Shown: positions 2,473 to 11,360 of the stretch, piece by piece | Layout: every line of letters begins with the position of its first letter | How positions within the stretch are numbered: position 1 is the first letter of the stretch | Assembly (NCBI RefSeq): GCF_036702665.1 | Contig: NZ_JAUBUN010000017.1 | Span: 1-41,768 of the forward strand | DNA: 41,768 nucleotides | Origin: Microcoleus sp. Aus8_D2 | GTDB taxonomy: Bacteria; Cyanobacteriota; Cyanobacteriia; Cyanobacteriales; Microcoleaceae | Direction of reading: 5' to 3' | Translations under genes and position numbers: made by a program | The notes under the pieces: model-generated | Database searches by the model: none | Told to the model about the DNA's origin: nothing | The model's input: the letters and a program-made list of their open reading frames with translations, nothing else

Positions 2473-2622
2473 GGTTTGCGGGAGTCTTGGGGAGGCTCGA
2501 TTGTATCTTTACCATTAGTATTGCAGTAGTATTGCGGTAGTGGGGCGGTTGCGGGCGATTGAAATCGCGCCGACACAGACAAAACCCGAGCTCAGAGGGG
2601 TTGAAGAAATTAAAACTTAACT

Positions 2623-2727
2623 GGTTCCAAGGCAGAGCCTTGGAACCCATATTCAGAGGCTCTGCCTCGGCTGGTAAAATGGAGGCAGAGCCTCCCGGAT
2701 CTGCGTTACCAGGCAGAGCCTGGTAAC
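2623..2727. repeat. Array of four short hairpins. All share the apex GGC-AGA-GCC but have different, compensating stem extensions (ccaaggc/gccttgg, gaggc/gcctc, ggaggc/gcctcc, ccaggc/gcctgg).
   Basis: Read directly in 2623-2647, 2654-2668, 2680-2696 and 2706-2727. Located in the ppk upstream region. Confidence 0.7.
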
Positions 2728-2880
2728 GAGTATAAACTCTTGTGGGGTGGGCTTCTAGCCCGCCCCAAAGGCATAACATCATATCACGCACCAATCCCCG
2801 CAATCCAATCCTGCACCGCCTCCAACAAATCCTCTGCATCCACCGCAAAACCTGTTAACGGCAATTCCAGCGGTGTGGCG

Positions 2881-3370
2881 CTAATCCAGATTAGTTACCA
2901 TTTACCAATGCTTTCAGCCATCCTATCCTTGATTTCTAGATACTTTCTAGTCATTTAACCTATTTACGTTATCCTAGTTGTTGAGATTGCTTAATTGTGG
3001 CTTGTCACTTTCTAGGCATAATCTAGACACCACACCCTCTAAAATCTAGCTTAGTATCTTGCACTTTAACTTTAACCCCTTAAATAAGGGGATAAATCAT
3101 AAACACTCCCAAAACCCCCATTTATAAAAAATTAAAATGACGTTTTGGGGTGAAAAACCCGGTTTTGATTTTAGGCCATAACACAAAGTACAAATATCGC
3201 TATGCTTGGCAGACTCTAGAGTAGTGATTTTCGACTTGGTGAGAGTAAAAATATGTAGGATAATTGATAATCTATTATTTAACTTTAACCCCTTAAATAA
3301 GGGGATAAACAATAAAAATGAGTCCCCCTACCCAAAGGACTCATTAGCATATTAACTTTACCTAACCTGA
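2881..3370 (-). repeat. Repeat-family copy B, inverted relative to copy A. It is interrupted by about 185 bp (3096-3277), and the segment TTTATCCCCTTATTTAAGGGGTTAAAGTT is duplicated on both sides of the interruption.
   Basis: 2881-3095 aligns to the reverse complement of 95-300 at about 98% identity. 3278-3370 aligns to the reverse complement of 28-127. The palindrome CCCCTTAAATAAGGGG occurs at 3068-3083 and 3287-3302. Confidence 0.75.
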
Positions 3371-3375
3371 CAAAC

Positions 3376-3606
3376 TTACTCTTTTCTAGAGATTTGTTGC
3401 CAGTGGCGAGGCATTGGTAAATCCCAGTCTAAAGTAATTTCATCTCCTATTTCCCTACCCAAAAAGAAGGGACTAAGCACTTTGTTGGCGTGAGCTTGCC
3501 ACAAAGAAAGTTGGCTACTGTCAATGTCTTCTTGCCACACAGAAGGTTCGTTACCGCCGGGTAAAAGTATCCACCTAATATACAAGTCAAGTCCTAAGTT
3601 GGTCAA
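3376..3606 (-). CDS. Hypothetical protein. Possibly the 3' continuation of 3616-4221 after a frameshift.
   Basis: 76-aa ORF immediately downstream on the same strand. Confidence 0.3.
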   Translation of the reverse strand: MTNLGLDLYIRWILLPGGNEPSVWQEDIDSSQLSLWQAHANKVLSPFFLGREIGDEITLDWDLPMPRHWQQISRKE

Positions 3607-3615
3607 GGTAGTTAC

Positions 3616-4221
3616 CTATCGCTTTCTGTGTCCTGCAATTGGACACCTGCTACGGGTATAAACAGGTTCCCAAGAAACTTTTAAGTTTTGAGATTTGCCT
3701 ACATAAATAACTTTTGGTTCTGTTTTGCTTACCATCACAAAGAACAAACCACGAGAAGGAGGTAAAAAATGGAGTGAAGAAAGAGGCAATATCGGTAACT
3801 GTAAAATACTTTGTGGGGTGATGTCAGTTACCATGTTTATTTGAGCTTTGTCGGAATTCCCTAAGTATTCCTCCATTACAGTCGCTTTTTTAAGAGCGAT
3901 ATGTGGACTCTCATTCGGTAACTTCGCTTTTCGCTCTGTTCGCTCTATCGATTCAGGAGGAGGAAACTCACCCTCATAATGCACTAGACGTTTCCATGTT
4001 TCAGTCATGGTTACATTGCCGAAACATTTTGCATAGGAATCTATATTTAGTTTCTTAGCAAGCTGTTTGTAGAACTCGAAACTCCCAGCACCCAAGTTAC
4101 CAAAAACAAAACCTGAGTTGAAACCTAGGCTTTTACGTGCCGAACAGTATTCTTCTCGCTCTTCTAACGCGGACGTTACGATTTGCGATCGCAAATCACT
4201 TGATAACGGTAAATCTGTCAT
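3616..4221 (-). CDS. Hypothetical protein (island cargo). The C-terminal stretch GLFFVMVSKTEPKVIYVGKSQNLK is faintly GIY-YIG-like.
   Basis: 201-aa ORF with no recognisable family. The ORF 3376-3606 follows after a 9-bp gap in another frame, so this may be a frameshifted single gene. Confidence 0.4.
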   Translation of the reverse strand: MTDLPLSSDLRSQIVTSALEEREEYCSARKSLGFNSGFVFGNLGAGSFEFYKQLAKKLNIDSYAKCFGNVTMTETWKRLVHYEGEFPPPESIERTERKAKLPNESPHIALKKATVMEEYLGNSDKAQINMVTDITPQSILQLPILPLSSLHFLPPSRGLFFVMVSKTEPKVIYVGKSQNLKVSWEPVYTRSRCPIAGHRKR

Positions 4222-4676
4222 AGTTATTCTGTTCCAATCGTTGGTTGTAAACGTTTGGGGAAGTCGTGGTTAGTGTGGTTCGTCAAAACCGCATTACCGC
4301 GCATCAATCTTCCTTAGTTACTCACGATTGCAGGTTTGCAGCCGCTTGTCAACGGTATAACCGTTAAGTTCTGTAAAGTTTTGTTACGGGTAATGGTACA
4401 GAAAAAATAAAAGTTCGTTATATAACCTTTGTTTGTAGCGTAAGTCGCTAATATGGTTTATTTATTATAGCTTACTTAATTAGACTAAAAGGTACAAAAA
4501 AGTTGAATAGGAGGGTTTTTTATTGGCTATTTTTATATTTACTATTTACACCCTGTTTTAGTCCATTTTAACGCTATACTGATTTTGTAAACCTATATGG
4601 TTTTGAAATATTTTGACATATACTGAAAACAGCCAGCGATTTAAGCGCAAAGTATTCTGAACAAGGAAGTGGCAGA

Positions 4677-4916
4677 ATGATTGTGAATTACGAGAATACA
4701 CCCGTCTCTATGCCCCATTATTGGGAACACATAGTAACATCTCATTACCTGACAAAGAATAGGTACGTCCCTGCTTATAAGCTAGAAGCGCTTAAGGATG
4801 GCGATAGCATAATTGATAGATGCCGTCGGAGATGGTGGAAAATTAAATTAGACGAACACAACCAACATTTGAAACCACAAGGTGCTATTATCCGTTTTGT
4901 TTACTGTAACGGCTAA
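4677..4916 (+). CDS. Hypothetical small protein (79 aa) in the AT-rich island
   Basis: Isolated ORF in AT-rich DNA with no recognisable motif. Confidence 0.25.
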   Translation: MIVNYENTPVSMPHYWEHIVTSHYLTKNRYVPAYKLEALKDGDSIIDRCRRRWWKIKLDEHNQHLKPQGAIIRFVYCNG

Positions 4917-5575
4917 AGCACTATTAAACCGTAAATCAAAGTAGGTCAATCTCAGTTGGTCTACTTTTTTGTGGGTAAATAAAGCGGATTTAGTAGTACA
5001 GGATTACGGAACTTTATAGGTTGGTAACATCGTTGTCAACATTAAACAGTGTTATTTAAGTGATGTACATATGTAAGATTTGTAAACATTTACGAGTATA
5101 GGGGAGTACAATAGATAAGTTTTATTAATATTAAAATTAGAGTAATTGTAAATCAATGTAACGGAAATATTGCATTAGAACTAACTAACTAGATAAAAAA
5201 CATGAACAGAGAGATACAAAAATAGTGGGTAGAAAGAGGTAGTAAAGAAAAATAAATCCCCCCCAGGGTTTTGTACCTTTCAAGCCTTAAAGGAGGCAAA
5301 AATGGCTGTTTCTGTGGCGATTAAGAGCATGAGTGATTATAAATTGCAAAAAATGAAGGGAAAGGATAGCGACTCACTTCATTAATAAAACTTATCTATT
5401 TAAATATAGGGGGGTTCAGTTTTGATTAGTAGCTGTAATATTTTTATTATTTATCCCCCCATATTGGGGGGGATAAAGTTATATATTTACTGATGATATG
5501 ACCTACAGGTTCACTCAGTAAGTAGGCACAAAAAAACCTACCGGGTTAGGGTAGGTAGGTATGTACTGGGTAGGG

Positions 5576-7027
5576 TTAGACTACTACTAACTCTGTTGAC
5601 TCATTAATACCTAAGTAATGTCTTAGAATCACATCCACACTGTTGCCACAACTGCTAGCTATGCGTAACAGAGCGTTGTTATTGTGGCTATTAGCTTGCG
5701 CGGTTAGCGTGATGTAAGTGTGACGGCAATGATAGGACGCTAAATAACCACTAATTTTGCCTTCACGAGCCAATTGTGAGACTATACCGGGATAGAAATA
5801 CGTTACTTCTTCCCCTGATTTGAGAGTTTGTTTTTTTACATAATCACGCCAAACTCTCCCTAGGGAAGAAGTATCTATATACCCCCCATTGGCATTTGAA
5901 AAAATTAAACCCTCTGTTTTGTCGCCTTTAATTTCTAACAACAAAGCTTTTAAACGTTCAAAATCTTCAAAATAAAACAAGCGGCTCTCGCCCGTCTTAG
6001 TGTTTTTAACCTTGCGAGTAGAAGCACCTAGTGACTTACTAATTTTGATAACATGACGTTCAAAATTAACGTCACGCCAAGTTAGTGCATAAACTTCGCT
6101 AGGGCGACAACCCGTTAAAAACAGAAATTCGATAAACGGTGCAAACATGATAGAACCTTTGCGAGTTCTATTGCTATCAGACTCATAAAACGCTTTGATG
6201 ATGATATCACGTTCATCCTTAGTAAAGGCACGCTTATCATTCTCTAAAGCTTTCTCATCCTCTACTTCATGCCATTCTACAATCTCACCATTAACTACTT
6301 TGTCAGCATACTTTTGCTGTGTTGTGACAACAGGTACGCTAAATTTGTTAGTAGCAAAAGGATTGTTAGTAGCCGAATTAACGATTAATCCTTTTGATTG
6401 GGCATACTCAAAGGCTTGATTTAACGCTCTCAAACTCAAAGTTTTGAGTTTGGATGTTATTGAATCAAGCGCGGTTTCAATACCCTGTTTGTCATTTAAA
6501 TGAACGGTAGCTAGCGGGTTGTCAGATAGTGTCAACTGACTACCCTTGTTTTGAAAAATTTTACCGTAAATTATGTTGCCATATTTTTTGTACGTTGTGT
6601 CAAAAGTAGTTTCTTCTATGGTTGTTTTTTTCCACAATAGATATGCTTCCCACATCGCACCTACGGTTATCTCAGGTACGGTTTGAGTCGTACCCGGCAA
6701 TTGAAGTACATCAGCTAACTTAGCATATTTGCCCCCTCCTAAGCCATATTTAGCAAGGGTAGGGTCAAACAGCTTTTCCCACTCTGGATGGTCTAAATCA
6801 GCCTCCATCGCAGCAGCAATTTGGCTAGCCCGCTTCCAATCCTCTGGGGTATCAGAGTAGCCGTATTTGCCTATTCCTAAGCACTTAGGCTTACCCTTGA
6901 GTGATTTACCGTCTAGTAGCTCCCACAGGGTGCTATGGCGCTTGGGGAAGCGCAAGGCGAGTGACCCTTTGTCAGAGTAAACAGATACATCACAAGCGGA
7001 CTGTGCCTTTTGAGATTGAGCTTTCAT
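5576..7027 (-). CDS. Tyrosine recombinase / phage-type integrase
   Basis: C-terminal catalytic signatures are present: LTGCRPSEV (Arg), HCRHTYITL (H-x-R-H box) and VILRHYLGI (Tyr). A ~480-aa protein with a long N-terminal arm/core-binding region. Confidence 0.88.
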   Translation of the reverse strand: MKAQSQKAQSACDVSVYSDKGSLALRFPKRHSTLWELLDGKSLKGKPKCLGIGKYGYSDTPEDWKRASQIAAAMEADLDHPEWEKLFDPTLAKYGLGGGKYAKLADVLQLPGTTQTVPEITVGAMWEAYLLWKKTTIEETTFDTTYKKYGNIIYGKIFQNKGSQLTLSDNPLATVHLNDKQGIETALDSITSKLKTLSLRALNQAFEYAQSKGLIVNSATNNPFATNKFSVPVVTTQQKYADKVVNGEIVEWHEVEDEKALENDKRAFTKDERDIIIKAFYESDSNRTRKGSIMFAPFIEFLFLTGCRPSEVYALTWRDVNFERHVIKISKSLGASTRKVKNTKTGESRLFYFEDFERLKALLLEIKGDKTEGLIFSNANGGYIDTSSLGRVWRDYVKKQTLKSGEEVTYFYPGIVSQLAREGKISGYLASYHCRHTYITLTAQANSHNNNALLRIASSCGNSVDVILRHYLGINESTELVVV

Positions 7028-7059
7028 GGTAGGTTCTCTCTGTGACTATTGGTTTGTCA

Positions 7060-7160
7060 AGGTTCTGGGTTTCTAGATACTTTCTAGATAATGACTAGAA
7101 TGTGCCTGGTATTTAACCCCTTATTTAAGGGGTTAAACCATAAAATCAGTATAACATGGT
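7060..7160 (-). repeat. Repeat-family copy C. It is abbreviated, in the same orientation as copy B, and lies immediately 3' of the integrase.
   Basis: TTTCTAGATACTTTCTAG...ATGACTAGAATGT...AACCCCTTATTTAAGGGGTTAAACCATAAAA matches the B and A motifs. Confidence 0.65.
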
Positions 7161-7170
7161 TTTCGCCTGC

Positions 7171-10100
7171 TTAATCGCTAATCCAGGCGATATGAATACC
7201 CATGTGAGAGTCGGCGAGTTTGCGGGTGAAAGACGAAAGCGCATTTTCGCACGGGCACGAGTGCAAGATTAAGGCGATGTGCGGTTTTTGCAGCCGGTGT
7301 TTGAGTTGGGGGATTAATCGCTTGAATTCCGGGGCGTTGCGGATGGCGGGGATGTCTGTATCTGCGGGGAAGATTGTTTGATATAGTTGGGTACAGAGTT
7401 CTTGGGCGATCGGGCTTATATCGGTTTCGCCTTCTAACGCGCGAATGTTGAGGGGTACGGGGAAGGTTTTATCTGTGGGTTTGAGTTGTTTTAGGAGTGT
7501 GGGGATATCTGGATTTTGTGGGTGGTTGTCCGGTATTGGGGAATTGGTGGGTTGAGTGTGCCATGCTTGATAAAATTCTGGGTAAGTCTTGCTTTGGGCA
7601 CAGTCAGAGATGACGAGGCAGCACTTGTGATAAAGAGTAAAGTCGTTTTTGTAGATTTCGGAAGTTAGGCAATCTTTCAAACCAGAGACTGCGATCGCGA
7701 AGTGTTTATCTTTCATGATTTCACCTAAGCTATCTGCCGCTATACTACGGATATGTCTATCACCTGAATTGCTGATTAACTCGACTAAAGCGGCGATCGC
7801 ATCCGGGTTGTTTTTGCATATTTGCCCTAGGCTTACAGTCGCTCTCCTCCGGGTATTTTTATCCTGAAAAGTACCGATTAACTCGACTAAAGCTGAGAGC
7901 GCAACTGAGTTATCTTTTTCGATTTTTCCTAAGATATTTAGGGCATTTCTCCAGGTATTGTCATCCTCAGAAGTACCAATAAGCTCGTCGCAATTATCTA
8001 AATTTGCGAGTATCAGAGAGTTGTTTGTTACTGATTTTGACAAGCTATATGCCAATTTAATCATCGTATTGTCATCTTCAGAAGTAGCACTCAGTTCATC
8101 AAAATTTACAAGTATAACTAAGTTATTTATGTCAATTTTTCCTAAGCTATTTGCCGCTGTCATCCGGGTATTTTGTTCGCCTGAATTGCGAATTAACTTG
8201 ACTAACCCGGAGATTGCAACTGGGTTATCTTCACCTATTTCTCCTAAGCTTTTTGCCGCTTGCTTCCAAGTATCTTCATCCTGAGAACTACGGATTAACT
8301 CGACTAAAGCTTCGATCGCAACAGGGTTAGATTTGCCTATTGTTCCTAAGCTAGCTGCCGCCTCCCTCCGGGTATTTTCATCCTGAGAATTACGGATTAA
8401 CTCGACGAAAGCTTCGATCGCAACTGGATTATCTTTGCTTATTTCCCCTAATATATTTGCCGCTATCCACCGGGTTTTTTCATTACCTGAATTGCGGATT
8501 GACTCAACTAAAGCTACGATCGCCCTTTTCCGATCCGTCTCCTTCAGTATATCCCATGAACTCTCTGCCAGTGGAGCGATAAATGTTTGCCACTCCTGCT
8601 TTTCCTCATCAAAATAACCAAACCCCCACTTAATAACCTGCGACACAATCTCATCAGCAAAACTGCAATCCTTAAACTCAGCAATCCCCGCAGCCGCGAG
8701 AAAATATGCCCGATCTCCATAAAATTTACCACACCCATCCTCAAACTCAACCAACGCCTTAATAAACGCTTCCTTCTCCTCCTTCCCAACCTCCTCACGG
8801 CCCAACCACAGCAAAATAACCTCCTTCCACTGCTTCTCAAAAATCCGATATCGAGCATCAGGATGCTGCGGATTCCCAGGAAAATGATTCAAGAAAAAAT
8901 GCCAATCCTCAGCCGCCAACGCCGCAAAATATTCCTGAAAAGTCGGATGATAAAAAGCATAAATCCCTTCCGCCGTCTCCGCATCCCTCGCCACCAAATT
9001 CAGCCAACCCAAGCGGCAAGCTATCTCAAACTGCGATGCACCCATCACCCGATATCCCACACTTTCTCGTAACTGAAACCGATCCGTTTCATTTAACATC
9101 CCAGCCAGAGCCAATTTCCCCAAAGCCGCATTCAAATCCTGCTGCTGACTCCAATTCAGGCGCGGTTCCTTCCACTGATACAAAGCAGTCACAAACCGCC
9201 GATAAAGCTTAGCCTTAGTATCCGGCAAATCCCCATCCAACGACTGCCAAGTACCGCACAGCAGCGAACATCTCAGCGGATTTTTTACTAAGTCTTGAAT
9301 TCGCTCTTTCCCCGATGCTGCTAATGCTTCCCGTAGCTGTTGGGAAAGCACCCCCCCAGCCCCCCTTGCTAAGGGGGGAGTAAGAGTTTCTTCTGTATTT
9401 TGGGTTGGGATGGAGGGAGGAAGAACCCCCCCAGCCCCCCTTGCTAAGGGGGGAGTAAGAGTGTTCCCTTCTCCTGTCGCCTGCGTTGATAAACCACGAG
9501 CAAAAGTATCCCCTTCTTCTCTTGTCCCCCCCCTTAGCAAGGGGGGGTTAGGGGGGGTTCCAAACCACTTATCGATAAACATTTCCACCTGTTCGGGATA
9601 GGAAAACTCCAGAGTACGATAAGTATCAAAAGTATCCAAGGCAGAGCCGATCGCATCCCAAACATTCTGCCGACAACTTAGCACAATCCGCGCCCTTTGA
9701 ACACAGCCGCCCGTTCTAACTTGTCGCTGAATTTCCGCCAAAGGATTCCCATCACCCGCAGCCATCTCATCCGCGCCATCCAACACCAACCAAACCCGCT
9801 CAGCATTAAACTGTGCTAAAAAATCATCTTTAATATCCGCCGTCGCCTCAGCTTTCCCAACCCTCTTAATTGCCGCCAGCAACCAAGTATCAAATAAATA
9901 CGATTCTAAATCTTTCCCCTGCAAATCCGCCAAAGCAACCCAAATAACAATCGCCTCGGAAATTTCCTCCGCCACCCAATTAGCAATCTGCCGCAACAGC
10001 GTAGTTTTCCCCGCCCCCGGTTCCCCAATAATTGCTAACCGCTTCCCATTGCTCTTCGGGCTACTTCCTCCCCGCAAAACTTGCTCCAGAAACTCCTTAT

Positions 10101-10992
10101 TTTCAAAGGTTTGAGTTACTTCTTTTTCCCGGTACAAATCCGAACCTTCCTCCGCCGCCAAATCCTCCCGGCGCTGAGTCACTTTGTGCCGTTCAACCAA
10201 TCCCAGCGGCACATAAACATCATCAATTTGACGATCGCCAAAAGTTAGCTGATTGCTACTGAGCCGCTGCTGTTCTTTCTCGTCTAAAATCTGCTGACAA
10301 ATAGCCCGCCAGTCAATCGGTTGGTAAACAATGCGGCTCTTTTGCACAATCTCCTCAAGCCAAGCATACATCTCTTGGGTTGTGGTATCAATTCGCGTCA
10401 AAGTTTGCCCGGTGAATATCTGAAAAACCTTTTCATTTTCCTTGATTTCTTGAGCAAAGTATGCAGCCACCAAGGCAAACAACTCTTGCTCTAACTTCGT
10501 TTTGTAATGTGCGACATCGCAATTTTCGAGGGCAACTTCCAGCAATTTTTGCTCAACTGCTGCTACCCGATTCTGCTTTAACTCATCTGTGGCAGTCAGC
10601 AGCAATTCTATCTCATCTAAACCCTCAATCGGAATCCCAGACGGGACTGTTTCTTTATTAACCTGTTCTAAATCTAATTTGAGCTTTTCGAGCTTTCGTT
10701 TCAACCAATCAAAATCGCGCCGCCTGTCTTGCAGCGAATAGCTAAAACTCTCTCGGTTAGCGCTATTTTTCGGATCGATTTCCTGCTTGCATTCTGAGGC
10801 GATTTGCTGCTGAGCTTTCAGGAAAGATGTTTTCAGCGCTTTTTCTAAATCGTGATTGACAATTTTACCGTTTCGCGATATCTTTTTAATGCCTGTCAAA
10901 CAGAGATGTTTTGCTGCATCATTAACTTGAGTTCCTAGTATGCCTTGCCAAGCGACTGTGAAAAGCAAGCCCAAGGTAATCGGATCTGACAT
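7171..10992 (-). CDS. STAND-class NACHT NTPase with C-terminal HEAT/PBS-lyase repeats and an uncharacterised ~300-aa N-terminal domain.
   Basis: Walker A is AIIGEPGAGKTTLL. The NACHT-type Walker B is VWLVLDGADEM. The C-terminus has many tandem HEAT-like repeats (…NPVAIEALVELIRNS.DE.TRR.AA.SLG.IG…). The start is placed at the internal ATG 10992 (MSDPITLG) with GGAG 9 nt upstream. The ORF-track extension to 11130 is encoded by the tandem repeat. Confidence 0.85.
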   Translation of the reverse strand: MSDPITLGLLFTVAWQGILGTQVNDAAKHLCLTGIKKISRNGKIVNHDLEKALKTSFLKAQQQIASECKQEIDPKNSANRESFSYSLQDRRRDFDWLKRKLEKLKLDLEQVNKETVPSGIPIEGLDEIELLLTATDELKQNRVAAVEQKLLEVALENCDVAHYKTKLEQELFALVAAYFAQEIKENEKVFQIFTGQTLTRIDTTTQEMYAWLEEIVQKSRIVYQPIDWRAICQQILDEKEQQRLSSNQLTFGDRQIDDVYVPLGLVERHKVTQRREDLAAEEGSDLYREKEVTQTFENKEFLEQVLRGGSSPKSNGKRLAIIGEPGAGKTTLLRQIANWVAEEISEAIVIWVALADLQGKDLESYLFDTWLLAAIKRVGKAEATADIKDDFLAQFNAERVWLVLDGADEMAAGDGNPLAEIQRQVRTGGCVQRARIVLSCRQNVWDAIGSALDTFDTYRTLEFSYPEQVEMFIDKWFGTPPNPPLLRGGTREEGDTFARGLSTQATGEGNTLTPPLARGAGGVLPPSIPTQNTEETLTPPLARGAGGVLSQQLREALAASGKERIQDLVKNPLRCSLLCGTWQSLDGDLPDTKAKLYRRFVTALYQWKEPRLNWSQQQDLNAALGKLALAGMLNETDRFQLRESVGYRVMGASQFEIACRLGWLNLVARDAETAEGIYAFYHPTFQEYFAALAAEDWHFFLNHFPGNPQHPDARYRIFEKQWKEVILLWLGREEVGKEEKEAFIKALVEFEDGCGKFYGDRAYFLAAAGIAEFKDCSFADEIVSQVIKWGFGYFDEEKQEWQTFIAPLAESSWDILKETDRKRAIVALVESIRNSGNEKTRWIAANILGEISKDNPVAIEAFVELIRNSQDENTRREAAASLGTIGKSNPVAIEALVELIRSSQDEDTWKQAAKSLGEIGEDNPVAISGLVKLIRNSGEQNTRMTAANSLGKIDINNLVILVNFDELSATSEDDNTMIKLAYSLSKSVTNNSLILANLDNCDELIGTSEDDNTWRNALNILGKIEKDNSVALSALVELIGTFQDKNTRRRATVSLGQICKNNPDAIAALVELISNSGDRHIRSIAADSLGEIMKDKHFAIAVSGLKDCLTSEIYKNDFTLYHKCCLVISDCAQSKTYPEFYQAWHTQPTNSPIPDNHPQNPDIPTLLKQLKPTDKTFPVPLNIRALEGETDISPIAQELCTQLYQTIFPADTDIPAIRNAPEFKRLIPQLKHRLQKPHIALILHSCPCENALSSFTRKLADSHMGIHIAWISD
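9348..9560. repeat. Intragenic palindromic repeat insertions in the NACHT gene. CCCCCC(AGCCCCCC)TTGCTAAGGGGGG occurs as two direct copies (9348-9386 and 9425-9462) plus one opposite-orientation copy (CCCCCCCCTTAGCAAGGGGGGG, 9527-9548).
   Basis: Read directly. They are translated in-frame as TPPLARGAGGVL (twice) and PPLLRGG, between the NACHT and HEAT modules. Confidence 0.8.
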
Positions 10993-11031
10993 TTGACGGT
11001 TCTCCTGATGCGCTGCTCGAAGCGGGTTAGT

Positions 11032-11360
11032 TTGATTGTAGGCGATCGACTTTAGTGGCGATCGGGCGAGTTGACAGGTGCGTCGCTTTGAGATTTTCGA
11101 TGTTTGGCTAAGGATTTTCTGTGGCGACACACCCGAATACTTGATTGTAGGCGATCGACTTTATTGGCGATCGGGCGAGTTCACAGGTGCGTCGCTTTGA
11201 GATTTTTCATGTTTGGCTAAGGATTTTTTGTGGCGACACACCCGAATACTTGATTGTAGGCGATCGACTTTATTGGCGATCGGGCGAGTTGACAGGTGCG
11301 GAGCTTTGAGATTTTCGATATTTAGTTAGGGATTCTTCGCAGGCGACACACCCTACGATT
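11032..11360. repeat. Tandem direct repeat of 3 x ~109 bp, each unit containing HIP1-like GGCGATCG motifs. It lies between the HTH regulator gene and the NACHT gene.
   Basis: Units start at 11032, 11141 and 11250 and are >90% identical (TTGATTGTAGGCGATCGACTTTA(G/T)TGGCGATCGGGCGAGTT(G/C)ACAGGTGCG...). Confidence 0.85.

Follow-up and report, generated by a model that had tools for sequence, protein, structure and literature searches.

What are near-perfect palindromes of C and G runs doing within the coding sequence of a bacterial NACHT gene, and how did they come to be there? The question is raised by a contig of the cyanobacterium Microcoleus sp. Aus8_D2 (NCBI RefSeq assembly GCF_036702665.1, contig NZ_JAUBUN010000017.1), of which positions 1 to 41,768 were analyzed; this whole stretch of 41,768 nt is called the window. 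On its minus strand, at 7171..11130, lies a gene for a NACHT protein of the STAND NTPase type, a 1319-aa open reading frame (ORF) recognized from the ORF list, its translation and Pfam. Within this gene a variable linker of 219 nt, or 73 aa, at 9343..9561 (-), is made up of three palindromic units and their spacers. A first-pass annotation had regarded these units as members of a window-wide palindrome family that had been exapted into coding sequence. The evidence presented here leads to a different answer, to which we give a probability of about 0.75: the linker is made of a very small, oriented palindromic repeat from a family dispersed at the level of DNA, is translated as a tolerated, disordered loop of the NACHT protein, and evolves locally by duplication, deletion and slippage.

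Pfam places the NACHT domain at aa 365-523 (PF05729, 46.5 bits compared with a cut-off of 26.7), and also finds HEAT_2, NCC-H and NCAB1, the last two being C-terminal, NACHT-associated domains. The Walker A motif is GEPGAGKT. The nearest homologues are Microcoleus/Oscillatoriales NACHT proteins, with 84-94% identity. The bounds of the linker were taken from orthologous alleles together with the element-free allele L126 (L and P numbers are labels of retrieved loci and homologous proteins). In the protein it is preceded by ..EQVEMFIDKWF and followed by QQLREALAASGKE.., a position after the NACHT core, which ends at aa 523 in Pfam, and before the next helix. The Pro/Gly-rich segment does follow the NTPase, as had been stated; it does not directly precede the HEAT repeats, which begin at about aa 870, some 270 residues farther on.

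Read along the coding strand, the linker consists of C7 TAA C7 TTGCTAA G8, a 72-nt stretch running from ACAAGAG to CTCTTACT, C6 TTAGCAA G6 CT G7, a 46-nt stretch, and a second C6 TTAGCAA G6 CT G7. The first of these is unit C (9519..9558), which is inverted with respect to the gene and reads CTCTTGT C8 TTAGCAA G7 TTA G7 T on the plus strand; on the coding strand it is C7 TAA C7 TTGCTAA G8 ACAAGAG and encodes TPPNPPLLRGGTR. It was delimited from its sequence, its inverted-repeat arms and nhmmer. Units B (9425..9461) and A (9350..9386) are in the orientation of the gene (-), and were delimited with a repeat finder and nhmmer; B reads CTCTTACT C6 TTAGCAA G6 CT G7 T, translated as TLTPPLARGAGGVL, and A has the same letters throughout the unit. 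The C-run/G-run sequence is indeed present twice in direct and once in inverted orientation, as had first been described. CCCCCCTTGCTAAGGGGGG is found on the plus strand at 9360-9378 and 9435-9453, each time within a 42-nt copy; the two copies share 98% identity and have a spacing of 75 nt. The inverted CCCCCCTTAGCAAGGGGGG is at 9528-9546, in an inverted repeat with 89% complementarity across 28 nt. The pattern CCCCCCTTNNNAAGGGGGG has three matches in the window compared with 0.00 expected from 100 dinucleotide shuffles. All three units are read in frame within the 1319-aa ORF and, as had also been noticed, both orientations yield similar Pro/Gly-rich peptides, GTPPNPPLLRGGTR once and TLTPPLARGAGGVL twice. 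The whole linker peptide is GTPPNPPLLRGGTREEGDTFARGLSTQATGEGNTLTPPLARGAGGVLPPSIPTQNTEETLTPPLARGAGGVL, and GAGGVLPPSIPTQNTEETLTPPLAR is one of the predicted peptides encoded by the insert.

Each unit has an 8-bp stem, C6TT/AAG6, a stable hairpin of the kind that characterizes elements resembling the Rickettsia palindromic elements (RPEs). Units C and B diverge from a spacer at 9462..9518 (-), which is able to fold with them into one long hairpin like that of a REPIN doublet; the DNA fold of 9340-9570 has an energy of -53.5 kcal/mol (z = -3.0), with C paired to B. A tandem period of 75 nt, judged from start-to-start spacing, extends over about 1.6 copies at 9346..9462 (-) and comprises a unit and the 46-nt spacer, which encodes PPSIPTQNTEE. 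A search of Rfam in E-value mode with 9200-9700 produced only sub-threshold microRNA and snoRNA noise, and no RNA family. An intramolecular G-quadruplex was considered and is unlikely, with only two G-runs per unit.

The early view of the segments as copies of a small palindromic DNA element rather than an ordinary protein linker is borne out, and related genomes carry the element at many further loci. A scan with the 17-mer CCCCCTTAGCAAGGGGG, restricted to one genome per species, gave at least 119 loci, mostly cyanobacterial: many Microcoleus species, Tychonema, Nostoc, Calothrix, Coleofasciculus, Limnoraphis and Laspinema. Look-alikes in Calidithermus, Planctomycetota, Nitrospirota and others were among the matches listed; a few bare hairpins from unrelated taxa probably match by chance. 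The unit is oriented, since of 122 cyanobacterial hairpins 110 carry a single outer run, on one side. Across the family it is about 37 nt long and consists of a weakly conserved CTCTTGT, C6-8, TTAGCAA, G6-7, a spacer of 2-5 nt (TT, TTA, CTA, CT, ACTGA or ATTTA), G6-8 and T; the consensus in the window is (A)CTCTTRYT-C6-8-TTAGCAA-G6-7-(CT/TTA)-G7-T, and all three copies there are canonical units. In unit orientation the loop is TTAGCAA in 83 cases and TTGCTAA in 21. Beyond the unit, the information content of the flanks of 110 distinct units is limited to T at -1 and TT or AT at +1/+2; conservation ends at the unit edge. Among 72 adjacent unit pairs the commonest arrangement is divergent (41 pairs), a doublet like that of REPINs in which the spacer measures 11-19 or about 52-55 nt; units C and B are arranged in this way.

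A profile hidden Markov model was built from 108 units of other genomes, with the orthologous NACHT locus excluded. Applied to the window, it gave exactly three matches, with E-values from 1e-11 to 2e-10, and these are the three units of the linker: C at 9520-9558 (+) with E 1.3e-11, B at 9424-9462 (-) with E 2.3e-10, and A at 9349-9387 (-) with E 2.2e-10.

Repetitive extragenic palindromic (REP) sequences are extragenic, whereas 81 of the 122 cyanobacterial hairpins (66%) lie within ORFs of at least 200 aa. Pfam domains on both sides of the insert indicate that these cyanobacterial ORFs are real host genes. In-frame hosts include GlyS, LigA, DnaX, aconitase B, PurL, MenD-like TPP enzymes and a Mur ligase, and also a radical-SAM protein, an amidase, a PKS module, a kinase-AAA-GAF-PAS protein, and WD40, VWA and CHAT-TPR proteins. 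Four of the six reading frames of the unit are open; in unrelated genes all four are used, and the unit is present in intergenic DNA as well. According to strand and frame it is translated as PPLARGAGG, PLSKGGLGG, PPLLRGG or PLAKGG, and since one DNA sequence gives differing peptides, it is conserved at the DNA level and not at the protein level. Unlike classical REPs, the family appears inside genes, in frame, about as readily as between them. In LigA, 65 of 120 cyanobacterial sequences have 40 aa between two conserved anchors that flank the site, whereas Microcoleus has 84-87 aa, with a divergent doublet present; its left unit, C7 TAA C7 TTATCAA G8 ACAAGAG, equals that of the NACHT gene except for the loop. 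In-frame insertions with element-free orthologues, as in RPE-like elements, are thus found for both NACHT and LigA. The LigA loop is generally permissive. In other cyanobacteria it holds unrelated inserts (P0124, P0141, P0158), such as SPNLPISQ repeats and, in Trichodesmium, a 47-aa insert.

Comparison of orthologous NACHT alleles, which the first-pass annotation had proposed, revealed that both the presence and the copy number of the element are variable. Homologues from Nostocales (about 60% identity) have linkers of 22-28 aa, all without the element. In the Microcoleus/Tychonema clade (73-96% identity) essentially every allele is different at the linker, which ranges from 33 to 370 nt, the longest being that of the frameshifted allele L122. 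Element-containing alleles carry 1-6 units, in arrays of 2-6 units where there are several; L120 has a bare C7-N7-G7 hairpin and L121 a single nested palindrome. At the other extreme, L126 is 95% identical in the NACHT domain and has only KWYENVDAPRGKQLREAL at this position.

Several kinds of change can be read from these alleles. Arrays have grown by tandem duplication of a unit together with host flank: the syntenic allele L122 has 3.5 copies of the 75-nt period with 97% matches (Tandem Repeats Finder), L130-132 have a 72-nt period that includes the duplicated host flank VLSQQPGEALDE, and L130 has a 48-nt period. Segments between hairpins have been deleted; because each hairpin is palindromic, inverted copies are also direct repeats. 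Hairpin loops invert, with centres flipped between alleles and copies (AGC/GCT, AGT/ACT and AAG/CTT). Finally, homopolymer runs gain or lose a base and have repeatedly frameshifted the NACHT gene. Three frameshifted alleles map exactly to changes of length in three different runs, the kind of intragenic tract known from phase-variable genes: the outer G7 has become G8 in L122, the inner G6 is G5 in L138, and the inner C7 is C8 in L139/L140, two metagenome-assembled genomes (MAGs). Two more were deduced from the truncated peptides P0120 and P0084. In all, roughly one third of the database alleles are disrupted at the linker site.

Larger rearrangements occur at the same place. In L123 and L124 (from 2068) an in-frame deletion has joined the first hairpin unit to a HEAT repeat with loss of the helical/winged-helix region, which suggests that the unit array can act as a recombination breakpoint. 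In L128 and L129 (from 2068) an out-of-frame deletion extends from FIDKW to GWLNLVARD, and behind it lies an ORF whose N-terminus is typical of TnpB/OrfB, MSVRIAYQYKLRPTK.... Foreign DNA is joined inside hairpins in L127, P0030 and P0095, and a shared foreign sequence, ..GCTACCGTGTACACAC.., with the peptide YRVHT, is found within different hairpins in three alleles (L127:1990-2107; P0030, P0049, P0095). It resembles an insertion sequence (IS) that targets hairpins; some IS elements target REPs. At the linker site of L135 (2068-2235) and L136 (2068-2255) there is an unrelated, long GC-rich palindrome, GGGCGGGCACGGGG...GTAGGGGCGGTGCCCC, with an 18-nt tandem repeat; it encodes SPRGGHGEEGGHGGTAPTNPLNVGAVPPCPP. 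At least two palindromic families thus have this site as a hotspot or a tolerant spot. A CRISPR-like or programmed tandem array was considered for the arrays and rejected, since the spacers either repeat together with the unit or come from host flank.

An AlphaFold model of aa 301-800, based on a 71-sequence alignment, has a mean pLDDT (predicted per-residue confidence) of 75.6. The NTPase and the following helical/winged-helix region are folded confidently, and aa 531-586, between a helix that ends ..FIDKW and one that starts QQLREAL, are coil with a pLDDT of 25-36. In the model the insert extends from a surface loop as a disordered segment, and the NACHT protein appears to tolerate this Pro/Gly-rich loop of about 73 residues. 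The proposal that the element has been exapted into coding sequence is not borne out. No evidence of a recruited function was seen in the alleles or the model: a near-identical allele, L126, lacks the insert, neither its length nor its copy number is constrained, disorder is predicted, and the gene often breaks there. A tolerated, unstable passenger fits these observations better than a recruited function.

How such a linker would have formed can be outlined. The first copy probably arrived by insertion of a family member rather than by evolution in situ. A divergent doublet, C and B, together with the tandem extra copy A, would then have been translated as the loop of about 73 residues. Adjustable run lengths may ease the drift of new insertions into frame, which would explain the unusual success of the family inside genes. 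The element would be a selfish or neutral passenger that is tolerated, and not an adaptation.

Other explanations have to be set beside this one. If the segment were simply a flexible Pro/Gly spacer, produced in situ by codon-level tandem duplication under selection and unrelated to repeats elsewhere, then local tandem duplication as the main source of copy-number change and the predicted disorder would both be expected; an inverted copy, units that are near-perfect DNA palindromes, the recurrence of their DNA in unrelated genes in four open frames and between genes, and the recovery of all three units at E ~1e-10 by a profile built from foreign loci would not, and this explanation is extremely improbable. 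Scarcely more credible is the original proposal of one window-wide family from which the coding copies had been exapted. It drew on AT-loop palindromes, CCCCTTATTTAAGGGG, at 98, 3076, 3289 and 7117, which like the units have a C-run, a loop and a G-run. Both are enriched in the window, and the enrichment of C-run/G-run hairpins there is genuine (8 compared with 1.9 expected). The AT-loop palindromes, however, have runs of 4 nt, a loop of A and T only and no second run. They are embedded in separate inverted repeats of 207 and 100 nt around ppk and at the borders of a ~4.6-kb segment that encodes a tyrosine recombinase, and with the family profile they give E>6 or no match.

A more serious candidate, though still an unlikely one, is a system of the REPIN or bacterial interspersed mosaic element (BIME) type, in which a RAYT-like Y1 (HUH) transposase would recognize the hairpin and move the doublet, a non-autonomous transposon, in trans. 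Such a mechanism is attractive because of the doublets: inverted pairs with spacers of the two size classes given above dominate, and the doublet of C and B folds as a single long hairpin. At 26-40 nt the unit forms an imperfect palindrome, and REPs within genes, including those for DNA ligase and polymerase, are documented (PMC3733652). Against this, neither end of the 110 distinct units has a conserved GTAG or CGTC tag, and two thirds of the cyanobacterial copies are in ORFs, whereas REPs are extragenic. No unit-flanked transposase gene was seen in the retrieved loci. In a tblastn search of all retrieved DNA (~1 Mb) with RAYT and IS608 TnpA queries, the single genuine Y1 transposase near any copy (L076:820-1430, IS200-like, PF01797) is flanked by classical GTAG-tagged REPs of its own, GTAGGACAGGCGTCTCGCCTGTC, and not by units. 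L076 is a textbook REPtron, and the locus also holds C/G-run hairpins.

Adaptive phase variation of the NACHT gene is possible. In the strong form of this explanation the gene is a contingency locus, its G/C runs and array being retained to switch a costly gene resembling nucleotide-binding leucine-rich repeat (NLR) genes, or to vary its linker, at high frequency; this we consider doubtful. As a family, NACHT STAND proteins are typical conflict and defence genes. Runs of 6-8 G or C are present within the ORF, at least three independent frameshift alleles lie exactly at run-length changes, with the two deduced cases in addition, and about a third of the database alleles are broken at this site. 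On the other side, the same element is present in the essential LigA, DnaX and GlyS, where an OFF state would be lethal, which makes the runs a feature of the element and not a design of the NACHT gene. The other disruptions, namely deletions and junctions or ORFs that are foreign or IS-like, resemble plain decay. PADLOC gave only weak and partial matches to the NACHT protein and no convincing defence model, and for this reason the protein is not assignable to a validated defence family.

A broader version of this idea, again improbable in our estimation, would make the array of hairpins and homopolymers a built-in mutator and recombination module of an NLR-like immune gene in a multicellular cyanobacterium. 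Slippage in the runs would turn the gene ON or OFF, +1/-1 ribosomal slippage on CCC-C/GGG-G beside a stable hairpin might rescue OFF alleles in part, and hairpin-mediated recombination at the junction of NTPase and sensor would shuffle or delete the sensor; more generally, variable G/C runs would let insertions find frame quickly and so colonize essential genes. It is compatible with the recurrence of run-length frameshifts.

The preferred explanation, a dispersed palindromic repeat carried as a passenger, has its own difficulties. No enzyme or mechanism of spread was identified, the single Y1 transposase in ~1 Mb of retrieved DNA being flanked by a different, GTAG-tagged REP. L126 and the filled alleles differ across about 27 nt, and neither a target-site duplication nor a clean insertion boundary is definable. 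The window has no further copy, so that genome-wide spread rests on other genomes, with at least 119 loci listed. The insert may have a function after all, for instance through a tuned linker length or RNA structure. Some of the disrupted alleles come from metagenome assemblies, in which homopolymer errors are possible; arguing against assembly error, two MAGs share the L139/L140 allele, and there are several truncated clusters of 8-36 members.

The nearest precedent is provided by the RPEs. As summarized in PMC3184786 and PMC3733652, these palindromic repeats (Ogata et al., 2000) are found in frame in many genes, including housekeeping genes, are translated and tolerated in surface loops, and act as selfish DNA, a given site being filled in some relatives and empty in others. 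The family described here is likewise in frame in many genes, translated, and either present or absent among relatives. It differs in that RPEs are given in the summary of PMC3733652 as ~100-150 bp, AT-richer and with a CGTC end, compared with a unit of about 37 nt with G/C homopolymer runs that forms doublets and arrays. The two are not similar in sequence, the hosts here are free-living cyanobacteria, and frameshift instability from homopolymer runs is not a described feature of RPEs. Being about 37 nt long and without a conserved CGTC at its ends, the unit is an RPE analogue and not a member.

With REPs, REPINs and BIMEs (PMC3116915; PMC3733652) the family has in common that the palindrome is short and imperfect, that inverted doublets, separated by short spacers, can fold as a longer hairpin, and that clusters alternate in orientation. 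Intragenic copies are shared too; those of REPs are occasional, and Di Nocera et al. (PMC3733652) describe them, genes for DNA ligase and polymerase being examples. The family differs from these elements in the absence of a GTAG/CGTC tag, in that no associated RAYT was found in ~1 Mb of loci, and in having about two thirds of its copies inside ORFs. The contingency loci of Neisseria and Haemophilus likewise have poly-G/C tracts of 6-8 nt in ORFs, with strain-variable lengths that shift the frame; the tracts here belong to a dispersed palindromic element. The doublets, at ~90-140 nt with units as inverted termini, also invite comparison with miniature inverted-repeat transposable elements, yet their internal sequences are not conserved and no target-site duplication is definable. 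SDR1-8 of Nostoc punctiforme, which Elhai et al. are said to have described in 2008 (Genome Res 18:1484), are reportedly small dispersed repeats of filamentous cyanobacteria, 21-27 nt long, that form hairpins, are presumed mobile, lie within other repeats and have inserted at precise sites. By this description they are similar to the unit in size and host group, the unit being somewhat longer and having nested G/C runs, and it may or may not equal one of the SDR families. In the literature searched, neither the sequence of the unit nor its encoded peptides are described.

These findings show that in-frame colonization of genes by palindromic repeats, a behaviour of selfish elements best known from Rickettsia, is common in free-living cyanobacteria such as Microcoleus and its relatives, where it reaches the essential genes LigA, DnaX, GlyS, PurL and MenD. 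The family accounts for a class of odd Pro/Gly-rich PPLxKGG / PPLxRGG inserts, and, in genomes and MAGs of cyanobacteria, for many genes that have been called as split or truncated. The NACHT linker is among the most allele-rich short segments documented in this analysis and is a potential strain marker. If switching proved to be reversible, the gene would be a phase-variable gene of NLR type in a multicellular bacterium.

Compared with the syntenic Microcoleus contig L122, the N-terminal half of the gene and the neighbouring genes have about 93% nucleotide identity, whereas the C-terminal half, with the sensor and HEAT region (window 7171-9340, L122 7678-10160), has 86-87%, with about 540 nt that cannot be aligned. 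The ~4.6-kb segment between the NACHT gene and ppk (~2580-7170) is absent from L122; its tyrosine recombinase is encoded at 5576-7027. Repeats around ppk and this segment lie at 25-124, 86-292, 2897-3103, 3278-3377 and 7106-7144, the 207- and 100-nt inverted repeats being 96-97% identical, and the segment looks like an integrative element or an invertible segment. A lone palindrome, CCCCCCATATTGGGGGGG, which had been placed at 5448-5466, is actually at 5455-5472, about 100 nt downstream of the recombinase gene, and has no match to the family profile.

A few further observations concern the hairpins elsewhere. A scan of IMG/VR found six plain terminator-like hairpins, no units and no sign of a phage vector. 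At L057:2900-3800 unit doublets have been amplified as a 201-nt tandem array, and at L103:2100-2400 a 39-nt tandem array encodes (PPLSKGGLEEQIS)n within a 573-aa ORF. The Calidithermus loci (L016, L021, L026, L082, L084, L091, L105, L109, L117 and L119) hold many modules of a hairpin and a G-run per 8 kb, flanked by (ACGCAAA)n heptamers on one side and GATAAACCCTCCCCGCG on the other, a related composite repeat in a distant phylum.

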